From Candidatus Saccharimonadota bacterium (GTDB taxonomy: Archaea > Nanobdellota > Nanobdellia > Pacearchaeales > GW2011-AR1): 32,000 bases of DNA. The notes beneath the pieces were generated by a model. The model was given only the letters and a program-made list of their open reading frames with translations. It was not told the origin of the DNA and did no database searches. Location: contig JAFCEL010000001.1 of assembly GCA_017609205.1 (NCBI GenBank), positions 30,001 to 62,000 of the forward strand. Direction: 5' to 3'. Position 1 is the first letter of the stretch. Each line of letters begins with the position of its first letter. Made by a program: the position numbers and the translations under genes. Shown here one piece after another: positions 4,151-30,584 of this stretch.

Positions 4151-5434
4151 ATGGCTAAAGAAAAACCAAACATGAATGTTGTGTTTGTAGGGCATGTTGA
4201 TGCTGGGAAGTCAACAATAGTTGGACAATTAATGTTCCAAAGTGGTGCTGTTTCTGAACAGGAAATGGCTAAACTAAGAGCAGAAGCAGAGAAACATGGA
4301 AAACAGGGTTTTGAGTTTGCTTACATTATGGATAAGATTAGAGAATCAAGAGAGAGAGGTGTTACAATTGATTTATCTTACAAGAAGATTATGACACAAA
4401 AGTGGCAGATAACAATTATTGATGCTCCTGGTCACAGAGATTTTGTTAAAAATATGATTACTGGTGCTTCACAAGCTGATTCAGCATTCTTAGTTATTGC
4501 TGCTCCTGCAGGAGTTCAGCCACAAACAACAGAACACCTATGGCTATTGAGAACAATGGGTGTAAAGAATTTGTGTGTAGCAATTAATAAGATGGATGCT
4601 GTTGACTATAAAGAAGAGAAATATAATCAAGTTAAGGAAGATGTTGGAAAATTATTAAAGGGTGTTGGAGTTAATCCTGACCAAACAACTTTTATTGCAT
4701 GCTCAGGTCTGAAAGGTGAAAATATCACAAAGAAATCTGATAAAATGCCTTGGTATAAGGGACCTACAATTCTGGAACAGTTTGATTTATTCCCTGCACC
4801 TGAATTACCAACAGACCTTCCAATGAGAATGCCTGTTCAAGATGTTTATGAGATTACAGGTATTGGAACTGTCCCTGTTGGAAAAATTGAAACAGGTGTG
4901 ATGAAGCAAGGAATGAAAGTTAAGGTTCTTCCAGGAAGAACTGGTAAAGGAATTGAAGGAGAAGTAAAGACTATTGAAATGCATCATGAATCACTTCCTC
5001 AAGCAGATGCTGGAGATAATGTTGGAATAAATATAAGAGGTGTTGGAAAGAAGGACATTGCTAGAGGAGATGTTGTATGTGATGCTGCAAAGCCAATTCC
5101 AGTAGTAGAAGAGTTTGAAGCAACAATAACTGTTATTAATCATCCAACTGTTTTAGCAAAAGGATATACTCCTGTATTTCATGTTCATACAGCCCAAGTT
5201 CCTTGTCAATTTGTAGAATTGATTGCAAAGATAAACCCTGCTACAGGTGAGGTTATTCAGGAAAATCCTGATTTCTTGAAAAATGGAGATTCTGCAAGAG
5301 TAAAGATCAAGCCTCAAGGAAATCTTTGCTTAGAGACAAATAAGGATAATCCTTATATGAGTCGATTTGCAGTTCGAGATGCTGGTGCGACAGTTGCTGC
5401 AGGTATGTGCACAGCAATTATTAAACAAAAATAA
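4151..5434 (+). CDS. tuf: Translation elongation factor 1-alpha (aEF-1alpha/EF-Tu family)
   Basis: 427 aa. Motifs [17 protein letters not shown] and NKMD are present, and the length and domains II/III are typical of aEF-1alpha. Confidence 0.97.
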
Positions 5435-12798: not shown

Positions 12799-13088
12799 TT
12801 GAAAAAAAGGAGAGAGAAGTTTTAAAAGTTATTGAAAAATTTCTAAAAGATTTAATTTAAGATAATCTCTCCTGGATTACAATCCGTTGTTAAAGAATAC
12901 AGGAACTAATATTTAAAGATTTCTTTTGATAGGTTAGTTTCAATCATCAGAATTTGATAGAAATTGGTTTTTCTAAAAAGGAATAAATTTTTTTCTTGCG
13001 AGAAAAATCCCTAAGAGCGATTAAAACTCCGCTCATCTGCAGTGAGCCCGCAAAAATATATAAATAAAATTAAGTTTGATATTACAAT

Positions 13089-13288: not shown

Positions 13289-13573
13289 ATGAATTTAAAG
13301 GAATTAAAAAAGAGATCTGATGGAAAAATAGTTCTTAATGAGAAATTAGTTGAAGGACAGAAAATTGGAGAGATTGAGGTTAAAGAACCTTTAGAAATAA
13401 TTCTCTCAAGCAAAGGTAATTATGATATTTTAAAGTATAGAGAACGACAAATTCCTGAAGATGCTGAGGTTTATTCTGTGGAAGAAATTGGGACTGTTAT
13501 TAGTGATTCTTTTCAGATGAATATTACAGATTATAAATTATTTAAAGTAGAATTTTATAAAAATATCAACTGA
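13289..13573 (+). CDS. Hypothetical protein (94 aa)
   Basis: Intact ORF with an ATG start. No motif was recognised. Confidence 0.5.
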   Translation: MNLKELKKRSDGKIVLNEKLVEGQKIGEIEVKEPLEIILSSKGNYDILKYRERQIPEDAEVYSVEEIGTVISDSFQMNITDYKLFKVEFYKNIN

Positions 13574-13609
13574 GTTCGCTTCATCCTGGTTTCTTCGTCC
13601 AAATCTGAT

Positions 13610-14275
13610 TCAAAACAATTTTTTCTGTTTCAGGTTTTTAGATGCTTTTTTCCAAGTTATCCATGTTTTTCTGAATATGCCTTCGTCTTTATACTTATTT
13701 GCATATTTTGAGATGAATCTCTGAGTAGCAGGATCAGAAGTATAACCAGAGCCTATTTTTTCCCCATACTTTTTTTTGAGTTTGTCTATTTCTTTTTCTC
13801 TTGTACTTTTCGCTAGAATAGACGCTGCTGAGACAGCTATATGGTTTTTGTCTGCCTTATGTTCACAAATTATTTCGAGATTTGAAAGGTTTTTTATTTT
13901 TGTTTTTAGAAAATCACTCCATTTGATTATTGATGGAGATGGGCAATCAACAATGACTTGTATTTTATTGTCTCCCTTATTTAGTTTATTAATTATTTTT
14001 GCACAAGCAAGTGCTTCAAGTTCATTAAGTTTTGTTCCATCTCCGTTGTTCTTGTCTATCTCATTAGGAGATATTAGGATTGTTTCAAAGCATTCTACAA
14101 TCTTTTTTATTTTTTCAGCAAAGAATTCTCTTCTTCTTGGAGTTAAATCTTTAGAGTCTTTTACACCTAATTTTCTTAGTTCTGTTTCTTGTTCTTTATT
14201 GATTAGGACCCCTGCCAGAATCATTGGTCCGATTACAGGTCCCCGACCTGCATCATCAATACCTATCTTTAACAT
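13610..14275 (-). CDS. rnhB: Ribonuclease HII
   Basis: 221 aa. It has the N-terminal GIDDAGRGPVIGPM catalytic motif plus the DSK and SAASILAK blocks typical of RNase HII. Confidence 0.93.
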   Translation of the reverse strand: MLKIGIDDAGRGPVIGPMILAGVLINKEQETELRKLGVKDSKDLTPRRREFFAEKIKKIVECFETILISPNEIDKNNGDGTKLNELEALACAKIINKLNKGDNKIQVIVDCPSPSIIKWSDFLKTKIKNLSNLEIICEHKADKNHIAVSAASILAKSTREKEIDKLKKKYGEKIGSGYTSDPATQRFISKYANKYKDEGIFRKTWITWKKASKNLKQKKLF

Positions 14276-14347: not shown

Positions 14348-14461
14348 GCCCGCGTGGCACAATGGTACTGCACTCGCCTGGAGATGGAACATAATACTCA
14401 AACCTAAACAACCAGGACGCGAGGCCTTTTAGGCATCCAGGTTCGATTCCTGGCGCGGGCG
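14348..14461 (+). tRNA. tRNA-Ser (anticodon GGA) with a 34-nt canonical intron (14384-14417)
   Basis: Acceptor GCCCGCG/CGCGGGC, discriminator G, long variable arm GCCTTTTAGGC, T-arm CCAGGTTCGATTCCTGG. The anticodon stem CTCGC/GCGAG is extended by a 4-bp helix CTGG/CCAG flanked by 3-nt bulges (BHB) at position 37/38. A TATA-like TTTATATAAG lies about 25 nt upstream. Confidence 0.85.
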
Positions 14462-15385: not shown

Positions 15386-16171
15386 TTAATTAATTTCTAA
15401 CTCAACCCAAACTAGATAATGATCAGAAATGTTTTCTGTGATATCTTTTGAATAAATCCCGTAGGATTTGTATTCTTCATATGCGTCATTGTTTAAAATT
15501 ATTCTATCATATGCACAATCTGAATTTGAGGAGGTTGTATCTTCGCTGTCTTGAATCAGCCATTGCCAACTATCAAACTCTGTTTCTTTGTTATTGTTAT
15601 AATAATTGCAGTCAGCATTTAGATCTCCGAGAATTAGAACATTTCCTGTATCAATTACTATATCTTTAAGATAATCTAGTTCTTGTTTAACATCATCTGG
15701 TTTTGTGTGAATGTTATAGATTGTTAAGGAATAGCCGTTAATATTAAAGTCAGTTCTTATTGGTGGGCGCTCCCATCTGTTTTGCGCATCAGGATTATAA
15801 TCATAAAAAGAAGTTAGATTAATTCCTTTTTTGTAAATTACCCCATATTGTTCTTTGGAGGAACTTCTTCCTGCACGGCTTGAGGTTATACAAGTGTAGT
15901 TGACTAGATGTGAGCATAAGATTGGAAAGGCAGTTTCTGATTTATCACGAATCTCTTGAACGAATATTATGTCATAATCGTCGATGATTGAACTATAAGT
16001 TTGTATTAATTCTGGGTTTGACGCTTTTGTCATTCCGAATATCTGCAGATTCCAGTTTGCAATCTTGATTGTATCAGCGTTGTAATAGTTATCATAAATT
16101 GTATAACCTCCAAATGATAGAACAAGTAAGAGAATAATCTTTATTAGGAATCTAAAATTTTTCTGTTTCAT
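15386..16171 (-). CDS. Secreted endonuclease/exonuclease/phosphatase (EEP, DNase I-like) family nuclease
   Basis: It has an N-terminal signal/anchor (FLIKIILLLVLSFGG). EEP blocks are present: IANWNLQIFG, DIIFVQEIRD, LILGDLNAD, SDHYLVWVELE. Its start overlaps the dtdA stop by 4 nt (ATGA). Confidence 0.8.
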   Translation of the reverse strand: MKQKNFRFLIKIILLLVLSFGGYTIYDNYYNADTIKIANWNLQIFGMTKASNPELIQTYSSIIDDYDIIFVQEIRDKSETAFPILCSHLVNYTCITSSRAGRSSSKEQYGVIYKKGINLTSFYDYNPDAQNRWERPPIRTDFNINGYSLTIYNIHTKPDDVKQELDYLKDIVIDTGNVLILGDLNADCNYYNNNKETEFDSWQWLIQDSEDTTSSNSDCAYDRIILNNDAYEEYKSYGIYSKDITENISDHYLVWVELEIN

Positions 16172-17001
16172 TTTGGGATTTCCCCTGTTTTTTTGTATTG
16201 AATGTAATTATCTTCGAGTATCTTGATGATTTCTTGTCGCTGTTCTGCTCCTCCGGTTCCCTTCCAATCAAGAACCACCAAATCGACTTCCTCTGTAGTC
16301 TTTGTAATTGCCTCCTTAAGCATATCTTTTGTTAGTGGAAGAGAATAGTTTGGTATAATATGCGAAAGAGCGATATTTGATTTGAGTTGTATTTTGTTGA
16401 AATTGGGGCAGTAATGCGGACCACCAATACCAATTGCAATTTCATTATAAGGATTTTCTTTAAAGTTCTCAATTGTTTCTGAAATAGTTTTAGCGACGAC
16501 AAATGCCGCACGCCTATCATTCCATTCTGTATCTGTTGAACCTATTTCTATAAAGACACATGGCTTCTCAATTAAAGGTCCATGATGTGTGCATTCGAGA
16601 GTAATATTATAGTTTTTATCTAGATTATATTCTTTTGCAGTTTTATTTAGGTTTTCAAACAGCTGTTTCTGGAACAAAGCAGAACTAGGACAGACTTTTC
16701 CTTGCTCTCCCCCTAAGTCAGCGTTTCTCCAGTTTCCAGGTGCATGAACAGAAAGACTCTTCTCTTTTTTTGAAGATTCATGCTTTGATGCAAAGATGAT
16801 AAAATCGTATTGATTCACTTTATTATTATCTATTCCAGTATCATCAATAATCTCAGTGTCAACCAAGTAGAAGTCAAAACCTCTCGCATCCTTATTCATT
16901 GAAGTTAAAAGAGGATTTTTTCTGAATTGTGAGAGAGATGTTGTTATATTTATTCCTGCTTTGTCTAGCTTGCTTGCAATTATTAAGAATTTTTTATACA
17001 T
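16168..17001 (-). CDS. dtdA: D-aminoacyl-tRNA deacylase, archaeal DTD2 type
   Basis: 277 aa, the typical DTD2 length. It has the LECTHHGP block and the GIGGPHYCP block characteristic of archaeal/plant DTD2 (GEK1) proteins. Confidence 0.82.
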   Translation of the reverse strand: MYKKFLIIASKLDKAGINITTSLSQFRKNPLLTSMNKDARGFDFYLVDTEIIDDTGIDNNKVNQYDFIIFASKHESSKKEKSLSVHAPGNWRNADLGGEQGKVCPSSALFQKQLFENLNKTAKEYNLDKNYNITLECTHHGPLIEKPCVFIEIGSTDTEWNDRRAAFVVAKTISETIENFKENPYNEIAIGIGGPHYCPNFNKIQLKSNIALSHIIPNYSLPLTKDMLKEAITKTTEEVDLVVLDWKGTGGAEQRQEIIKILEDNYIQYKKTGEIPK

Positions 17002-17022: not shown

Positions 17023-17032
17023 GTTTTAAAAT
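17023..17032 (-). promoter_or_regulatory. TATA box ATTTTAAAAC for dtdA (probably a leaderless or short-leader mRNA)
   Basis: It lies about 21 nt upstream of the dtdA ATG. The same TTTTAAAAC box precedes smc (about 12822-12831, minus strand) and the initiator tRNA (14690-14699). Confidence 0.45.
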
Positions 17033-17036
17033 TTGT

Positions 17037-17047
17037 CGGCGTTAGTT
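17037..17047. repeat. Left copy of the 11-bp direct repeat CGGCGTTAGTT (putative target duplication or att core)
   Basis: An identical 11-mer is at 20967-20977. The two copies sit 4 nt and 6 nt outside the terminal inverted repeats. Confidence 0.65.
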
Positions 17048-17051
17048 CTCT

Positions 17052-17069
17052 GTTACCTTAATTGGTCTT
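17052..17069. repeat. Left terminal inverted repeat GTTACCTTAATTGGTCTT
   Basis: It is the perfect reverse complement of 20943-20960. Partial complementarity continues for about 7 more nt inward. Confidence 0.8.
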
Positions 17070-17107
17070 TTAGATAGTTTTTTAAGTTTCTTTTAATTAG
17101 AAAATTT

Positions 17108-17653
17108 ATGCACATTAAGAAAGTTAAAACAGCGATTAAAATAGGGGATTTTATTTTAAGGCAAAATCATAGAAATAAAATAGACATAAAATATTTGCCT
17201 AACATTAGCAAAGATGTTCTTAATGATGATGTAGCAAGGATTTATCTTTTTGTTGTTGATGGAATTATTAAAAAAATTGGTGGCTCGTCTGGGAAGGGGG
17301 GCATAAAAAACACTATGAATTTTTATGTTTCTGCTATGACAGGAAGTCCAGGAGTTCCAAGATTTGTTATTCATTTACTAATTGCAGAAGCATTAGAAAA
17401 AGGTAAGAAAGTAGAATTATATATGATAACTTCTCCAAAAGTTTTAGCGACAGTTAATGGATTATTTGGTTCTAAAAAGGTAGAAATAGCAAGTTTTAAA
17501 GAAATGGAAGATTTTTGTAAGTCAGATTATTATTCTATTGAACATCGTTATCCTGATTGGAATTTCCAGGAAAATCACGAACCTTATCCTGTGGAATTAG
17601 CACAAAAACACAATGAATATCATAAGAACAGGTTAAAGAACAAGAAGAAATAA
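17108..17653 (+). CDS. Hypothetical 181-aa protein; candidate small restriction endonuclease (weak GIY-YIG-like pattern)
   Basis: It is convergent with the MTase with zero intergenic bases (stop at 17651-17653, MTase stop at 17654-17656). The segment RIYLFVVDGIIKKIGGS resembles GIY...YIG, with later FKEMEDF and DWN as possible catalytic Glu and Asn. The functional call is speculative. Confidence 0.35.
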   Translation: MHIKKVKTAIKIGDFILRQNHRNKIDIKYLPNISKDVLNDDVARIYLFVVDGIIKKIGGSSGKGGIKNTMNFYVSAMTGSPGVPRFVIHLLIAEALEKGKKVELYMITSPKVLATVNGLFGSKKVEIASFKEMEDFCKSDYYSIEHRYPDWNFQENHEPYPVELAQKHNEYHKNRLKNKKK

Positions 17654-18700
17654 TTATTTTTTTGGAGGACAGAAAATTAAAATTTCATGAGAACTCTTGA
17701 TATTTCTGTTAGTTCTGTTTTCTATTCTATTTTTTCCTATTCTTGTTTCTCCCTGCCCCATAGTATATTGCCACGAAGGAAAAAATTGCTGGAAATCTTT
17801 GTAATACTTTCTAATTGTTGGACAATTATTATAAGATAAAATAAACCCCCCTTTATGTTTTTTTAATAAATCTCTTAATTCTTCATGAGGAAAGCCATTG
17901 TGATGAACAGGAATATTTCTCATTGGATAAATCCCTTTAAACATTTTTGAATCAGGTCCAATATAATAAGGGGGGTCTAAATACATAAAATCATTAGGAT
18001 ATTTTTTCATAACTTCTCTAAAATCTGCCTGTTCAACTTTAAGATTTTTTGGATTAAAATCTCTTATTTTTTCAATCATTCTTTTATATCTTTTTTTATC
18101 AAGATAGATTTTTGAACTCCACCCCATAAATCCAGGTCCATAAGATAAATTAAAATTATAAACAAAATAAACAGCAAGAGTTAGGGGGTCTAATTTAATT
18201 TCTTTTTTCCAAACTTTATTTAATATCTTTCTTATTCTTTCAAATTTTTCTTTTGTTGGTTTTAACTTCTTTAATTCCTCATAAAGAAGTTTTGGATTTT
18301 CTATTTGAAATTTCCAATAATTACATAGAATATCAAAAATATCAAAACCAATAACTTCTAAATCCAAATATTTACTCATAGTAATTTCAACAGAACCGCC
18401 CCCAAAAAATGGAGAAACTACTCTTTTAACATCATTAGGCAATAATTCTAAAATATGCCCCACTGCCAAACTCTTCCCTCCTGCATAACGAATAGGAGAA
18501 ACAGGAACTCTTTTGTATTTATTCATACTTTTTGGATAAGTTTTACTAAGTATGGATTTTAGAAATGCTTCTTTTTTTTCTTTTAATTCAATTTCTTTTT
18601 TTGTTAAATCTAATTGTTTTTCCATTTCCTCTTTAAATCTGTCTCTTTTTACTTTTTTAATAATATTCTTCATTTTATAAACTTTGGTTTGAAAGTTCAA
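17654..18700 (-). CDS. Dam-family (D12 class) N6-adenine DNA methyltransferase
   Basis: It has YAGGKS, SAM motif I SPFFGGGSVE, and catalytic motif IV DPPYY in the alpha-group order. The more likely start is ATG 18671-18673 (MKNIIKK), 1 nt after the transposase stop. The 18700 start would overlap the transposase by 26 nt. Confidence 0.88.
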   Translation of the reverse strand: MNFQTKVYKMKNIIKKVKRDRFKEEMEKQLDLTKKEIELKEKKEAFLKSILSKTYPKSMNKYKRVPVSPIRYAGGKSLAVGHILELLPNDVKRVVSPFFGGGSVEITMSKYLDLEVIGFDIFDILCNYWKFQIENPKLLYEELKKLKPTKEKFERIRKILNKVWKKEIKLDPLTLAVYFVYNFNLSYGPGFMGWSSKIYLDKKRYKRMIEKIRDFNPKNLKVEQADFREVMKKYPNDFMYLDPPYYIGPDSKMFKGIYPMRNIPVHHNGFPHEELRDLLKKHKGGFILSYNNCPTIRKYYKDFQQFFPSWQYTMGQGETRIGKNRIENRTNRNIKSSHEILIFCPPKK

Positions 18701-19613
18701 TAAGTGCTAACCACTTATTAGGATTGTTTAATTTTTCTTTAAGTTCAGGACAAGCCAGTTCATAAGGACATCTTTTAAGAGTCTGGTGTTTAGTGATAAA
18801 ATTGTAATAAATTTCTAAACCCTTCATAATTGCTTTTGCAGAATCAACAGAGCCGTGAAATCCTCTAAAAGTTTTTGTTCTTTGTCTGATATTATTATGT
18901 AACCTTTCAATCATAATATTGAATCCTTCTCCTCTTGAAGCATTAACTTGATTATGATAAACATTAACTCTATGTGTTTTATTTGAAAATCCATAAACTT
19001 TCTTAATAGCATTAGGATAAGCAAGAAGTCCGTCAGAAGTTATAATCTTAACCTGTTCGCCTGTTTTTTGTTTTGCTTTTTTCAATACAGATTTTAATTC
19101 TTTTTGCTCCCTCGCTTTAACATATTCAGCAGAAACTATAAATCTTGTTTTGCTGTCTATTATATCAATAAACCAATTTTTATCAACACCTCTTTTAGTA
19201 TGATACTTTCTCCTATGATATTCCATTTCGTCAATTTGTATTTCTTCTCCAACCTGAAGTTTAAGTTTGTCTGTGAATTGAGAAATGATTTTTGAGTATT
19301 TTACAATCCATTTGTAAATAGATTTATGTGAAGCATTATGAGGATAAAATGCTCTTAAATGCTCTTGAACTTTTCTTGTAGAAACTCCTCTATAAAATAA
19401 GTCAATAGAAAGAGTAATTTTTTTAGGATTATTTCTCATTCTATAAAATGCAGTTCTTTTTATGAATTTCTTATTGCAAGATTTACAAAAATATCTTTGT
19501 TGCTTTCCATGAGCTTTTGTTTCAAATGTTCCGCGTTTAACTATTTCTTTGCTTTTGCAATGAGGACACGAAATATTTTTATAGTTCTTTTGCTTATTAC
19601 TTTTGTATTTCAT
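18675..19613 (-). CDS. DDE transposase with N-terminal zinc ribbon (IS6/IS240-like by motif layout)
   Basis: It has a zinc ribbon (CPHC...18 aa...CKSC) and a DDE-like triad: QIDEMEY, IITSDGLLAYPNAI, NIMIERLHNNIRQRTKTFRGFHG. The C-terminal pattern FRGF..S...A...L.G.E..YNF resembles IS6-family ends. The ATG at 19611-19613 is preferred over the TTG at 19661. Confidence 0.82.
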   Translation of the reverse strand: MKYKSNKQKNYKNISCPHCKSKEIVKRGTFETKAHGKQQRYFCKSCNKKFIKRTAFYRMRNNPKKITLSIDLFYRGVSTRKVQEHLRAFYPHNASHKSIYKWIVKYSKIISQFTDKLKLQVGEEIQIDEMEYHRRKYHTKRGVDKNWFIDIIDSKTRFIVSAEYVKAREQKELKSVLKKAKQKTGEQVKIITSDGLLAYPNAIKKVYGFSNKTHRVNVYHNQVNASRGEGFNIMIERLHNNIRQRTKTFRGFHGSVDSAKAIMKGLEIYYNFITKHQTLKRCPYELACPELKEKLNNPNKWLALIELSNQSL

Positions 19614-19639
19614 TTGATGTCGCAATTGGGTGGAATACG

Positions 19640-19655
19640 GGGAGCTTCGGCTCCC
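19640..19655 (-). other. GC-rich hairpin GGGAGC-CGAA-GCUCCC (mRNA sense) in the transposase leader
   Basis: It is a perfect 6-bp G/C-rich stem with a 4-nt loop in otherwise very AT-rich DNA. It lies 15 nt downstream of the in-frame TGA at 19671-19673 and about 26 nt upstream of the ATG at 19613. Confidence 0.5.
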
Positions 19656-19670
19656 ATTCAATTTATTTCT

Positions 19671-19781
19671 TCATATATAAGCAGATGTTCCGAATGGTTT
19701 TACTTCAGCCTGGATAACTTCCTCTATTCCTAACTTATCTAACTTCCCTTTAACTTCTTTTTTATTATCTTCATTTTTCAT
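19671..19781 (-). CDS. 36-aa ORF MKNEDNKKEVKGKLDKLGIEEVIQAEVKPFGTSAYI, AbrB/SpoVT-like fragment upstream of the transposase
   Basis: It is ATG-initiated and in the same frame as the transposase ORF, separated from it by a single TGA. From memory, the V-K-P-F-G-x-S strand motif resembles small archaeal transposon-associated AbrB-like proteins (DUF2080-type). The ORF appears truncated. Confidence 0.3.
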   Translation of the reverse strand: MKNEDNKKEVKGKLDKLGIEEVIQAEVKPFGTSAYI

Positions 19782-19823
19782 ATATATAATAGATATATGA
19801 ACTATTTAAATCTTTCGATTATA

Positions 19824-19857
19824 GTAATTTACTATATATTTATAAAGGTAATTTACT
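19824..19857. promoter_or_regulatory. Two direct GTAATTTACT repeats (19824-19833, 19848-19857) in the divergent promoter region; candidate RHH operator
   Basis: Exact 10-mers lie 24 bp apart, between the divergent transposase-leader ORF and the RHH gene, and overlap TATA-like TATATATTTATAAAG. Confidence 0.4.
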
Positions 19858-19874
19858 TTTATACCTATAAGAAA

Positions 19875-20045
19875 ATGCCTGCTAAAAATCCATTTGGTTT
19901 CAGTTTGCCTGATAAAGAAGCAGATTTATTAAGAAAAGCCATAAAAAAATATAAGAAATTTAATATTTCACAAACAGAACTAATAAGAAAAATTATATGC
20001 TCTTGGCTTTTTGCCAATAGACTTCAAATAGAAAATTCAAAATGA
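19875..20045 (+). CDS. Ribbon-helix-helix (CopG/Arc-like) DNA-binding protein, 56 aa
   Basis: MPAKNPFGFSLPDKEADLLRKAIKKYKKFNISQTELIRKIICSWL shows a beta-strand/helix/helix pattern typical of RHH proteins. The internal ATG at 19875 is preferred over 19797, whose N-terminus is low-complexity promoter sequence. Confidence 0.55.
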   Translation: MPAKNPFGFSLPDKEADLLRKAIKKYKKFNISQTELIRKIICSWLFANRLQIENSK

Positions 20046-20233
20046 AAATAAATATATCCCCTGATGATATGATGAATGGGCAAATTGAATTAAGTCGTTC
20101 TTTAGTTAGTGATGCACTTTTGAATTCGCAAGAAAGCATCAAAGCCAAAAAATTATTTATGGCTTATAAGATTATTGAACAAGTTTTAAGAAATTTGGGA
20201 ATAGACCCGCAGAATTTAAAGAAAGAAAAATAA
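20042..20233 (+). CDS. Hypothetical 63-aa helical protein, translationally coupled to the RHH gene
   Basis: A 4-nt ATGA overlap with the RHH gene stop indicates an operon. No motif was recognised. Confidence 0.5.
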   Translation: MKINISPDDMMNGQIELSRSLVSDALLNSQESIKAKKLFMAYKIIEQVLRNLGIDPQNLKKEK

Positions 20234-20274
20234 ATTTTCCTGCGGGCTTTTGAGGTTAAATTAAGATTAACCTC
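20206..20274. terminator. Two hairpins between convergent genes (CCCGCAG/CTGCGGG 20206-20246; GAGGTTAA/TTAACCTC 20252-20274)
   Basis: A 7-bp stem and an 8-bp perfect stem lie between and overlap the 3' ends of the convergent ORFs 20042-20233 (+) and 20267-20524 (-). Confidence 0.4.
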
Positions 20275-20524
20275 TTATCGTGTTTGCTCTTTCAGTAGCA
20301 TAAGCAATTCTTGAAATAAATTGAGCTACTGCTTTCTGAGATGATGCAATTAAACTCAAAGAACTTTCTATTCTTTTTTGAGTTTCCAAGATTTGTCTAT
20401 TGGTTTCTGCAATCTCCTTAATTGGATTTGTTAATGCTTTCGTTGCAGACAAAATTCCAAAAATTGAGATTTTATCATCTATTTCACGCTTCTTTTTCTC
20501 ACGCTCTTCAGATTTTTTTACCAA
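20267..20524 (-). CDS. Hypothetical 85-aa coiled-coil protein
   Basis: Intact ATG ORF inside the island. No motif was recognised. Confidence 0.5.
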   Translation of the reverse strand: MVKKSEEREKKKREIDDKISIFGILSATKALTNPIKEIAETNRQILETQKRIESSLSLIASSQKAVAQFISRIAYATERANTIRG

Positions 20525-20760
20525 TTCATTCTCCTGACTTTCGTCTTAATTTAGTCTTGCTTCGCAGTGATAACATAACTTTATAAGTATCTTACACCTC
20601 TCTCTTTTGTGTAAAAAGGTGGGTGCATAACTTATTCTATTAGTTATACTTGCAGGTTGCATTTACCTATCAAGTAACGCCTTGACTATTATCCAATTTA
20701 TTCAGAATAGATTTAATCTTCTCCTGATATTGGCTAACAACAGCAACAAAATATCAAATT

Positions 20761-20875
20761 TTGCTTATGCCTATATAAATATTATTTATATGCCTCTTTT
20801 AAATGTTTAGTGCTATTCAAAAGTTATAACAGAATTAAAAAATGATAGGGGTTAGAAGCAAATTGGCATAAGCAA
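20761..20875. repeat. 11-bp inverted repeat TTGCTTATGCC (20761-20771) / GGCATAAGCAA (20865-20875) inside the island's non-coding region
   Basis: The arms are exactly complementary and 93 nt apart. The right arm sits in the loop of a second hairpin, GGGGTT...AACCCC (about 20848-20882). Confidence 0.5.
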
Positions 20876-20942
20876 CAACCCCCTCATATAGTAATCTAAT
20901 AAAATATCTTTTAAAAACTTAATTATTGTTAATTGTTTCAAT

Positions 20943-20960
20943 AAGACCAATTAAGGTAAC
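20943..20960. repeat. Right terminal inverted repeat AAGACCAATTAAGGTAAC
   Basis: Perfect reverse complement of 17052-17069. Confidence 0.8.
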
Positions 20961-20966
20961 AATGCA

Positions 20967-20977
20967 CGGCGTTAGTT
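20967..20977. repeat. Right copy of the 11-bp direct repeat CGGCGTTAGTT
   Basis: Identical to 17037-17047. It overlaps the rpl10e stop codon (20976-20978) by 2 nt. Confidence 0.65.
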
Positions 20978-21515
20978 AATTTATTTTTTCTTCAATTATC
21001 TTTATCTTGCATGGCAATTTGGATTGGACTTGCTTAATAAGTTTTCTTACAAATAAAACTGCTTTTGGGTTTGGAACAGCTAAAAAAAAGATTTTGCCTC
21101 CTTTCTTGAGTATAGCTGCTTTTCCAACAGATTTTCCAAAAGCCAACTGCATCCCTGTTTGCATTCTATCAGCACCTGCGCCAGTGAGCATTTTATTTTC
21201 TCTCTGAATATGGTGTGGAAAAGGCACAACTTTGAAAAGATATTGTCCTGACAATTCCTTGTCTAATTTTTTATTAATATACTGGCGACATGCTTCGAGT
21301 GCATTATGTCTAATCTGGACTTTCTCGTTGGACACAACAGTTAACCCATGAGGAAGTTTTCCCTGTTGATAAAGACTTTCCTTACCCATTACGAATTTTA
21401 CAATCTTCTGATGGGGGACTGTTTTAATGTAAGATCTACTTTTCTTCTTAGACACCCTTGTAAATGGAACAACTTTCTTTTTTGAGTATGCTGATGCTTT
21501 TCTTAATGATGCCAT
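20976..21515 (-). CDS. rpl10e: 50S ribosomal protein L10e (uL16)
   Basis: 179 aa. It has a basic N-terminus (RKASAYSKKK...) and the GAGADRMQTGMQLAFGK block typical of L10e/uL16. Confidence 0.92.
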   Translation of the reverse strand: MASLRKASAYSKKKVVPFTRVSKKKSRSYIKTVPHQKIVKFVMGKESLYQQGKLPHGLTVVSNEKVQIRHNALEACRQYINKKLDKELSGQYLFKVVPFPHHIQRENKMLTGAGADRMQTGMQLAFGKSVGKAAILKKGGKIFFLAVPNPKAVLFVRKLIKQVQSKLPCKIKIIEEKIN

Positions 21516-30435: not shown

Positions 30436-30584
30436 CCCTCCGTAGCTCAGTGGTTAGAGCGCCTGGCTGTAGAATAGGGTGGATATTCCATTATATTCAT
30501 GGAAATTAAATGAAACCTGAGAAGTCAGTCCCAATACTGAATGCAGTACCCGGGAGATCCCCAGTTCGAATCTGGGCGGGGGGA
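30436..30584 (+). tRNA. tRNA-Tyr (anticodon GTA) with a 76-nt intron (30473-30548)
   Basis: It has a C1:G72 acceptor (CCCTCCG/CGGGGGG, the archaeal Tyr identity pair), discriminator A, and anticodon stem CCTGG/CCGGG. The loop is CTGTAG|intron|C with BHB helix CTGT/GCAG and 3-nt bulges AGA and TAC. T arm CCCAGTTCGAATCTGGG. Confidence 0.85.

Follow-up and report, generated by a model that had tools for sequence, protein, structure and literature searches.

A promoter-proximal, passenger-carrying element with a predicted restriction-modification cargo in a DPANN-type archaeal contig, and its fixed offset from host BRE/TATA promoters

Insertion sequences with passenger genes are known as tIS, and in the ISfinder IS6 collection one passenger-carrying member is recorded, ISDsp3, which has one hypothetical passenger gene (PMC7986276). 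IS6 elements have a single open reading frame (ORF), measure ~0.7-0.9 kb (up to ~1.7 kb), end in 14-bp inverted repeats and make an 8-bp duplication (PMC7986276). Transposon-like restriction-modification (R-M) units have been described in bacteria, with inverted repeats, 8-bp duplications and, in one of them, a transposase-like gene inside (Furuta et al. 2010, PMC2853133). With respect to target choice, insertions of TnGBS, ISLre2 and ISKra4 lie 15-17 bp ahead of the -35 box at sigma-A promoters, in both orientations for those members with near-perfect inverted repeats; an AT-rich target motif is all that was noted for the archaeal ISH6, and Ty3 with TFIIIB is cited as an example of targeting (PMC3942029). 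Here, we analyze a stretch of 32,000 nucleotides from a DPANN-type archaeal contig (JAFCEL010000001.1, positions 30,001 to 62,000; hereafter the window, numbered from its first letter) and an element within it that spans 17046-20966 (3921 bp) between the genes rpl10e and dtdA.

We consider it very probable that this element is a passenger-carrying insertion sequence of the tIS type, namely one copy of a DPANN family that inserts close to promoters and carries an exchangeable R-M cargo. The family is apparently undescribed and widespread in DPANN metagenome contigs. In full-text searches of the literature we found no description of it or of fixed-distance targeting of BRE/TATA promoters (BRE, transcription factor B recognition element) in Archaea; this search did not cover ISfinder, where prior curation is possible.

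Ends, duplications and relatives of the element

The extent of the element was set from its inverted repeats, its duplication and the comparison with its family. A perfect 19-bp inverted-repeat core, TGTTACCTTAATTGGTCTT, is found at 17051-17069 on the plus strand and at 20943-20961 on the minus strand, one base longer than the 18-bp repeat given in a preliminary description of this DNA. Within the window, these are the only two matches to the core at ≤3 mismatches, against a chance expectation of 0.04, and two matches were obtained in 0 of 100 shuffled sequences. Together with five variable outer nucleotides, the core forms ends of 24 nt: TTCTC + TGTTACCTTAATTGGTCTT at 17046-17069 (plus strand, the R-M side), and the reverse complement of TGCAT + TGTTACCTTAATTGGTCTT at 20943-20966 (minus strand, the rpl10e side). 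The inverted repeats, previously thought to be subterminal, are therefore terminal once these outer nucleotides are counted. Both outer variants also occur in other copies of the family, for which the consensus of the outer five nucleotides is T[T/A/G]C[T/A]T.

Directly flanking the ends is an exact 11-bp direct repeat, CGGCGTTAGTT (17037-17047 and 20967-20977), for which 0.05 chance matches are expected. The preliminary description took all 11 bp as the duplication; the match is exact as claimed, and the comparison with the family reduces the target-site duplication (TSD) proper to 9 bp, CGGCGTTAG. Its left copy, at 17037-17045, abuts the 24-nt end, and its right copy, at 20967-20975, is directly adjoined by the rpl10e stop codon at 20976-20978 (no strand is assigned to either copy). 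The extra two T's are coincidental, arising from the start of the element end TTCTC on one side and from the rpl10e stop codon on the other. The 24-nt ends enclose a transposase gene on the minus strand, a methyltransferase gene (M), a nuclease gene (R) and several small ORFs. A comparison of base composition, as had been proposed earlier, gave a slightly lower G+C content within the element (~0.26-0.31) than in its immediate flanks (~0.34-0.36).

Relatives of the element were sought by a degenerate inverted-repeat scan of a metagenome collection, which returned at least 120 stretches, some of them chance matches inside coding sequence. Among the matches listed, 76 ends passed a true-end filter and 71-72 of these had unique flanks, so the inverted repeat is not confined to the window; confinement to it had been named in the preliminary description as an outcome that would speak against a transposon. 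The same pattern gave 0 matches in the viral contigs of IMG/VR. Contigs encoding transposase homologues of 88%, 80% and 73% identity each have a 19-nt inverted pair (≤2 mismatches) around the transposase gene, and the units so delimited, of 6.3, 4.9 and 4.8 kb, all differ in gene content and flanks. Overall, the same ends accompany transposases of 61-94% identity at unrelated DPANN metagenome loci, in elements of 0.4-6.3 kb, and a transposase together with passengers lies between them in at least 11 other transposase-bearing elements. This bears out the earlier view of the locus as an R-M-carrying, inverted-repeat transposon inserted between rpl10e and dtdA. A smaller unit, having inner ends around the transposase alone, which the preliminary description had named among the outcomes against it, was considered and rejected: beyond the transposase gene the homology to relatives breaks off, inner repeats are lacking, and it is the outer ends alone that recur.

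A perfect 9-bp TSD is present in 12 of 14 complete elements from other loci (the contigs compared are designated L001, L004 and so on); in the remaining two, one repeat matches at 7/9 positions and one element has none. This count is made up of 10 of the 12 measurable pairs, one further pair being cut by a contig end, and of two hold-out elements. The duplications differ site by site, namely CGCTTAGGT in L004, GATTCAAGG in L006, CTTAAAAAA in L010, and, in the hold-outs, TCTAAAAGC in L218 and AAGTTATAG in L219; perfect TSDs are also found in L107, L109, L113, L131, L148, L167 and L196. L221 was unusable as a hold-out: it encodes a homologue of the transposase at 70% identity, but no ends could be recognised there with up to 5 mismatches.

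These repeats bear on a different reading of the locus, in which it is a genomic island brought in by a site-specific recombinase, with the 11-bp direct repeats as attL and attR. An exact 11-bp repeat that overlaps the 3′ end of a gene would agree with this, as att sites often do so. We judge it very improbable, since neither a tyrosine nor a serine recombinase was found by Pfam and NCBIfam profile searches, and 9-bp repeats that are particular to each site and abut identical inverted ends are a signature of transposition.

The ends can also be found without most or all of what they usually enclose. Short derivatives with the same 24-nt ends and perfect 9-bp TSDs are present in L148 (2441-2910, 470 bp), where the 5′ part of a homologue of the window R gene is kept, and in L196 (230-650, 421 bp). 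In addition, the copies in L131 and L192 are devoid of a transposase gene. Taken together, the short forms and the transposase-less copies indicate mobilisation in trans.

Insertion at a fixed offset from host promoters

Insertions of this family keep a constant position with respect to a BRE/TATA host promoter directed away from the element, a feature of which the preliminary description made no mention. Among the matches listed, TATA-type hexamers starting at -20 or -22 from the element end occur in 27 and 28 of 71 unique flanks, respectively, as opposed to 0-3 matches at every other offset from -60 to -6 in the same flanks; the two offsets belong to a single box, TTTATAAA. On the same basis, a strict TATA motif is present at -20/-22 in 35 of 72 unique flanks, compared to 1.0% at shifted positions (binomial p = 5.6e-50), and a relaxed motif is present in 42 of 72, i.e. 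in about one flank per insertion. The target consensus at -23 to -9 from the element end reads G-TTTATAAA-nn-TTT-C, and a T is found at -12 in 41 of the 42 TATA-side flanks. On the opposite strand, the consensus becomes GAAA-nn-TTTATAAA, also given as GAAAnnTTTATAAA, which we take for BRE+TATA in the archaeal arrangement, directed away from the element.

Of 32 long TATA-side flanks, 13 have an ORF that reads away from the element and starts 43-49 nt from its end. The most frequent distance is 44 nt, which puts the start codon ~22 nt beyond the TATA box, where it would be expected in leaderless genes. The layout is then as follows: the element end, the 9-bp duplication, 5 nt, the TATA box at -22 to -15, and the host start codon ~44 nt from the end. 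Apart from this, the nine duplicated bases are nearly unconstrained. Both orientations of the element occur, the promoter being faced by 29 left ends and by 13 right ends.

The rule also applies to individual complete elements. A TATA box is present at the standard offset on at least one flank in all 14 of those examined, the window copy included. In the window, the targeted promoter is that of dtdA (17024-17036, minus strand), the TATA box of which, TTTTAAAA, lies at 17024-17031 and is adjoined by an A-rich BRE side at 17032-17036, as read on the minus strand. This promoter fits the target consensus of the family: the T at -12 is at position 17034, and the dtdA ATG is 45 nt from the element end. 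The hold-outs L218 and L219, whose transposases are 66-67% identical to that of the window and one of which has a diverged inner repeat, likewise have the TSD, a TATA box at -22/-21 to -15 and a T at -12.

Two further sites were observed. In L218 (~5215-5246), the sequence directly before the insertion ends in GGTTCAAATCC... and looks like the T-arm at the 3′ end of a tRNA, and the targeted TATA box is on the other side. L128 contains a 138-bp form (2296-2433) without a duplication, with a TATA box at the standard offset in each flank.

On the flank opposite the promoter, the preceding gene often has its stop codon 3-17 nt away, and that of rpl10e in the window is immediately next to the duplication. 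Such very short spacers raise the question of whether insertion could instead be near random, with the promoter-proximal pattern arising, in compact DPANN genomes, from survival only between a stop codon and the next promoter. The conserved flank positions could be accounted for in the same way, as the A's of the BRE and the TATA box are promoter features that would be present anyway. Survival of this kind would, however, tolerate any position upstream of the BRE, whereas the matches listed form a single-nucleotide peak at -20/-22. Furthermore, there is room to spare at several sites, where no ORF of ≥70 aa is found within 80 nt on the far side, such that the position is not dictated by space alone, and the rule is kept in the 0.4-kb derivatives as well as in hold-outs with diverged ends. 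Hence, we regard survival from near-random insertion as a distinctly unlikely source of the pattern, and favour placement of the element at a set distance from the promoter.

The transposase and the two cargo slots

The transposase gene (18675-19613, minus strand, with its stop codon at 18675-18677) encodes a protein of 312 aa which, according to profile and fold matches, has an N-terminal CxxC...CxxC zinc ribbon followed by a DDE core of the RNase-H fold. The Pfam models DDE_Tnp_IS240 (PF13610; score 32.4, cut-off 27) and Transposase_mut (PF00872; 29.3, cut-off 21) are passed, as is the NCBIfam model of the IS1/IS1595 zinc-binding domain (NF050000; 30.4, cut-off 28); PF03811 scores 25.0 at a cut-off of 26.1. 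Among the NCBIfam models of whole transposase families, IS6 gives the best score (NF033587; 75.1, 5.7e-21, cut-off 125), with lower scores for IS1 (NF033558; 47.2, cut-off 100) and IS256 (NF033543; 47, cut-off 150). None of the IS1595 core models was matched in the NCBIfam profile search, and models of ISLre2 and ISKra4 are absent from the matches at E ≤0.1.

Across 38 homologues of the transposase, residues C16, C19, C43, C46, D128, D194 and E236 are invariant, which gives a catalytic spacing of D-66-D-42-E, and R243/R245 follow the glutamate. The window protein is full length and contains all the invariant residues. A predicted model (pLDDT 83.5) has its best fold match in the Protein Data Bank (PDB) to ISCth4 of the IS256 family, with an E-value of 1.2e-9 and a TM-score of only 0.34-0.42, and its next matches are TnsB, retroviral integrases, MuA and IstA. 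More than 1390 homologues were found and, where a source is named, all of them come from DPANN-type archaea, namely Nanoarchaeota, Pacearchaeota and Woesearchaeota. Judged from sequence and predicted fold, the protein is a putative DDE enzyme that falls between IS6 and IS256 and, by threshold, outside every curated family. The zinc-ribbon DDE transposase of the preliminary description is thus upheld by the invariant cysteines, the DDE triad and the fold. Its label ‘IS6-like’ holds to the extent that IS6 is the best-scoring model; the score is under the cut-off, DDE_Tnp_IS240 is passed at the domain level only, and the closest solved structure is of the IS256 family.

About 40 nt upstream of the transposase ATG is a hairpin, GGGAGC-CGAA-GCTCCC (19640-19655, minus strand). 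Its stem covaries among relatives (GGGAGC/GCTCCC, GGGCTC/GAGCCC and CGACCC/GGGTCG) around a loop that is constantly CGAA, or CGGA in L221. Hairpins with a CGAA-type loop are also located ~30-42 nt upstream of the transposase ATG in L004, L006, L212, L221, L107 and L109, and are missing from the transposase subgroup with a shorter N-terminus. The hairpin may be a regulatory structure, in RNA or in DNA.

The M gene (17654-18673, minus strand) begins with an ATG at 18673, 1 nt past the transposase stop codon, as originally described, and encodes a 339-aa N6-adenine DNA methyltransferase of the D12/Dam class. The protein matches PF02086 over the whole length of the profile (2.4e-34) and TIGR00571 under its cut-off (1.7e-15). 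The R gene (17108-17653, plus strand) is convergent to M and encodes a 181-aa protein for which sequence searches of Pfam, NCBIfam and PDB returned nothing. It was the predicted fold alone that revealed it as a GIY-YIG nuclease of the Hpy188I / T4 EndoII type: an AlphaFold model made from 37 homologues (mean pLDDT 88.6) was matched by Foldseek in PDB to T4 EndoII (1.6e-6) and Hpy188I (3.2e-6), both with a Foldseek probability of 1.0, and the next, unrelated match has an E-value of ~0.1. The protein shares the fold of Hpy188I, a similar size (181 vs. ~175 aa) and the pairing with an N6-adenine methylase, but is only 16-21% identical in sequence to enzymes of that type. The same convergent pair of R and D12-type M genes is also found in L109. 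Because of this fold and this conserved pairing, the window module is a predicted Type II R-M system, in which the small convergent ORF noted earlier would be the nuclease partner of the methyltransferase.

There are 609 homologues of the R protein, and the best 120 of these 609 are 73-100% identical to it. A homologue of 74% identity from Parcubacteria, which belong to the candidate phyla radiation (CPR) of bacteria, is encoded behind a helix-turn-helix gene of the controller type and convergent to a D12 methylase, within a defence island. R genes so alike in archaea and CPR bacteria suggest a recent cross-domain transfer. In these Parcubacteria contigs (L213-L217), the D12 methylase is fused to a LexA-like/S24 peptidase N-terminus, and AbiEii, a reverse transcriptase and a pair of Vsr and C5 methylase genes are among the neighbours.

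At the DNA level, the window element and its relatives are homologous at three places only: over ~29 nt at the left end, over the transposase gene together with the ~50 nt that precede it, and over the final ~53 nt of the element. The last of these is 87-98% identical among relatives bearing unrelated R genes and 79% identical in L144; none was detected in L010. This conserved right end reads ...TTTAGATAGGTTTTTAAGTTT..., and an ATG is found ~62 nt from the tip whatever gene comes next. In the window, its inner part (17070-17107, plus strand) contains a TATA-like sequence, TTTTTTAAG, at 17078-17086, 30 nt before the R ATG and conserved across relatives, and is likely to be the promoter of the R gene. 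L113 and L109 illustrate how the cargo varies upon this backbone: the transposase gene of L113 is 91% identical in nucleotides to that of the window and its R-M pair is unrelated, whereas L109, at 82% in the transposase gene, has the entire transposase-M-R block in common with the window.

The slot that follows the transposase is usually filled by a methylase gene starting 1-6 nt after the transposase stop codon (110 nt in L144) and by a convergent ORF. A methylase of the N6_N4 type is paired with an MvaI/BcnI nuclease in L107 and L144 (7.6e-49 in L107), and one of the Eco57I/N6 type with R.PabI in L113, L167, L131 and L218 (2.4e-14 in L113). A C5-type methylase (1e-80) in L212 has a 250-aa ORF without a family match as its partner, and two methylases in L004 accompany a 493-aa ORF, also without a family match. 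L006 and L010 have no separate methylase and encode instead a 798-aa protein without a family match. This protein (L006 6945-9341, L010 6913-9309) is convergent to the transposase and has no Pfam match; two methylase-like motifs, DRCAGTGN and NPPY, were recognised by eye, and it may be a fused Type IIG/IIL restriction-modification enzyme.

Cassettes with borders as sharp and recurrent as these, from the transposase stop codon to ~53 nt from the right end, might themselves be mobile and home into a favoured slot of an insertion sequence that is ordinary in other respects, particularly as R-M systems are known for mobility of their own (PMC2853133). Neither repeats nor duplications are found at the cassette borders, however, and the left slot, which is bounded by the same backbone, contains cargo other than R-M genes (Fic, DUF2080 and small regulators). 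Recombination within the transposase gene and the right end suffices to exchange the cassettes, without extra machinery. We therefore think self-mobile cassettes unlikely, and retain the view of a single element with exchangeable cargo.

Across the family, the left slot is taken up by small proteins (DUF2080-type or MazE/AbrB-like), a set of three small ORFs, Fic proteins or others. In the window it includes a truncated DUF2080 gene (‘putative transposon-encoded protein’) of 36 aa at 19671-19781 (minus strand); a variant in a JGI contig has 46 extra nucleotides and encodes the full 54 aa, matching PF09853 at 1.1e-11. This gene is followed by three small ORFs in the left arm, namely one of 56 aa at 19875-20045 (plus strand), one of 63 aa at 20042-20233 (plus strand), which overlaps the stop codon of the first, and one of 85 aa at 20267-20524 (minus strand). 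None of them has a significant family match in Pfam or NCBIfam, and the ribbon-helix-helix operon reported here earlier is not confirmed: that label comes from a reading by eye of the 56-aa ORF.

Adjacent to the left end is an ORF-free stretch of ~415 bp (20525-20942, minus strand) that is particular to the window copy. It has no Rfam match at either threshold and, save for ~70 nt beside the end in L166, no homologue in the family loci. Only the minus strand folds better than shuffled sequence, with z = -2.84 and two strong hairpins, the plus strand giving z = -0.2. Accordingly, the ‘450 bp of structured non-coding DNA’ of the preliminary description is indeed free of ORFs, at ~415 bp, and is structured only modestly and on one strand.

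Several observations accompany these features. Several internal TATA boxes are found in the loop of perfect palindromes, such as GGTACC...TTTATATA...GGTACC and GGGTGCC...TTTATATA...GGGCACC, in the left arms and the regions upstream of the transposase in L113, L122, L150, L140, L144 and L167; they look like operators overlapping the promoters of the DUF2080-type gene or of the transposase. A scan for sigma-70 promoters gave sites no more frequent than in shuffled sequence, this model not being relevant to an archaeon. Outside the element, the flanking genes are dtdA (16168-17001, minus strand, ATG at 17001; PF04414, 1e-61) and rpl10e (20976-21515, minus strand; PF00252). Elsewhere in the window, Rfam tRNA models match at 14348-14461 (114 nt) and 30436-30584 (149 nt), neither of which is reported by ARAGORN; the matches are unusually long and are probably intron-containing archaeal tRNA genes.

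Mobility, a proposed mechanism and comparison with known systems

Removal of the element and one duplication predicts an empty-site junction of ...AAATTTGTCGGCGTTAG|TTAATTTATT..., which the preliminary description had suggested searching for. Such a site was not found: a 22-nt exact pattern for the empty rpl10e-dtdA junction had 0 matches in the metagenome contigs, and when Rpl10e and DtdA were looked up as exact protein sequences, nothing was returned beyond the occupied contig and a sister-sample contig that stops at the junction. Moreover, rpl10e is next to dtdA in 0 of 80 genomes with a DtdA of 62-78% identity, leaving no site for comparison, and the co-directional housekeeping run that had been proposed for the uninterrupted locus is not conserved. 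Given that no empty site was found, the mobility of the element is deduced from the family, with its many independent sites and its short derivatives.

Variants of the locus itself are available from related samples. The window is 100% identical to JGI contig Ga0366833_1005466 (L001) apart from four clean indels. Two are inside the element, where the window has 63 additional nucleotides at 19500-19562 in the zinc ribbon of the transposase and lacks 46 at ~19675 in the DUF2080 gene; the other two are outside it, with 81 additional nucleotides at 13552-13632 and 37 at 13000-13036. All four could be population variants or assembly differences. A sister-sample contig, 99.86% identical, ends at window position 20968, two bases into the right duplication, and a second one breaks exactly at the internal 46-nt indel. 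These breaks fit a repeated or polymorphic element, as a weaker indication.

Several of these results weigh against the interpretation of the element as a promoter-targeting tIS with exchangeable R-M cargo. In addition to the missing empty junction and the lack of a comparison site among the 80 genomes, the window contains a single copy of the element within its 32 kb. In no NCBIfam model of a transposase family does the transposase reach the curated threshold. A recognisable R-M pair is not universal, as L219 carries Fic and unknown ORFs and the 798-aa protein has no family match. The family sample was gathered via the repeat pattern and a handful of protein look-ups and is, therefore, not an unbiased census. 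Purifying selection in compact genomes could add to the promoter-proximal pattern. Finally, the window copy may be impaired: it lacks 46 nt of DUF2080, which is thereby truncated, and in the sister variant an in-frame deletion removes 63 nt of the zinc ribbon.

This last point, along with the single copy and the missing empty site, would suit a fixed, immobile relic, in which the R-M pair now serves in host defence and the transposase and ends are decaying. We hold this to be somewhat unlikely, as there is no mismatch in the 19-bp cores or in the 9-bp duplication, the transposase is full length with its invariant residues, and the sister-sample contigs break at the junction as they would for a repeated or polymorphic element. 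It should be noted that the relic reading concerns only the present activity of the window copy and not the identity of the element, which we continue to regard as a passenger-carrying insertion sequence.

For such an insertion sequence, we propose the following mechanism. The transposase would bind the inverted repeats and cut the target with a 9-bp stagger, at a position chosen by a molecular-ruler reading of a promoter, either directly from the BRE/TATA sequence or from DNA bent and bound by TATA-binding protein (TBP) and transcription factor B (TFB). Movement may be replicative, as in IS6, which transposes through cointegrates, or pass through an excised or circular intermediate, as in IS256. 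In this way the element would land past the previous gene and upstream of an intact promoter, disrupting neither neighbour despite the very short spacers. M would be co-transcribed with the transposase and R driven by the right-end promoter; the R-M pair would stabilise the element by post-segregational killing and also defend the host, and cassettes would be exchanged by recombination within the conserved backbone. Only tentatively do we suggest, as a possibility short of an even chance, that the transposase uses the BRE/TATA, possibly bent by TBP/TFB, as a ruler that places the element exactly 14 bp upstream of the TATA box, and that these elements are the main shuttle of complete R-M cassettes among ultra-small archaea and also across domains. 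The cross-domain part of this suggestion draws on the R genes that are 73-90% identical in CPR bacteria.

DPANN genomes are tiny and gene-dense, such that random insertion would almost always be harmful and landing between a stop codon and the BRE/TATA would offer a route to persistence. The family is a testable case of promoter-guided transposition in Archaea. It is also a modular carrier with two cargo slots, one of which has its own putative promoter, and thus bears on the spread of defence genes among episymbiotic archaea, with a possible exchange with CPR bacteria in either direction. If the ruler reading is true, the family would be the archaeal counterpart of Ty3-TFIIIB or TnGBS-sigma-A targeting. 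A transposase with a fixed TATA offset could possibly be used for targeted insertion upstream of archaeal genes.

With regard to known elements, the family resembles tIS in having one transposase gene and passengers unrelated to transposition between short terminal inverted repeats, with a short TSD particular to each site. Unlike the tIS of the IS6 family, cargo is here the rule, and is held in two defined slots with a putative built-in promoter and consists mostly of R-M systems. IS6 is the best-scoring sequence family. It shares with the window transposase R/K after the DDE triad and a D-to-E spacing that is short (42 residues here), and an N-terminal zinc finger is likewise carried by some IS6 clades (PMC7986276). 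The family differs from IS6 by its 9-bp TSD in all informative copies, its 24-nt ends, its size of 0.4-6.3 kb, with cargo in nearly all full copies, and its fixed distance from promoters. The InsA-type N-terminal zinc ribbon is reminiscent of IS1/IS1595, whose domain model is passed, with the IS1 core model under threshold. IS256/Mutator elements are approached through ISCth4, the closest solved structure, and through PF00872, which is passed; the NCBIfam IS256 model is not (47 vs. 150).

In target choice, the closest likeness is to TnGBS, ISLre2 and ISKra4, which likewise keep a set distance from the promoter in front of which they land, the promoter being directed away from the element, and whose members with near-perfect inverted repeats do so in both orientations, as this family does. 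As bacterial elements they take sigma-A promoters for their landmark, whereas the present family is found at archaeal BRE/TATA promoters and has no match to the ISLre2 or ISKra4 models. Tn7 offers a further parallel, as its insertion at attTn7 is tethered to the DNA-bound TnsD at a fixed distance from a landmark. With Ty3 and Tn7 the family has in common this fixed distance and the little sequence constraint at the cut site; a role of TBP/TFB akin to the factors of those systems is here only hypothetical. The bacterial R-M units of Furuta et al. are isolated single cases, in contrast to the one recurring backbone seen here, with its many R-M types, co-oriented transposase and M genes and defined targeting. 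Taken together, the family is a variation on known kinds of element and not a new category.

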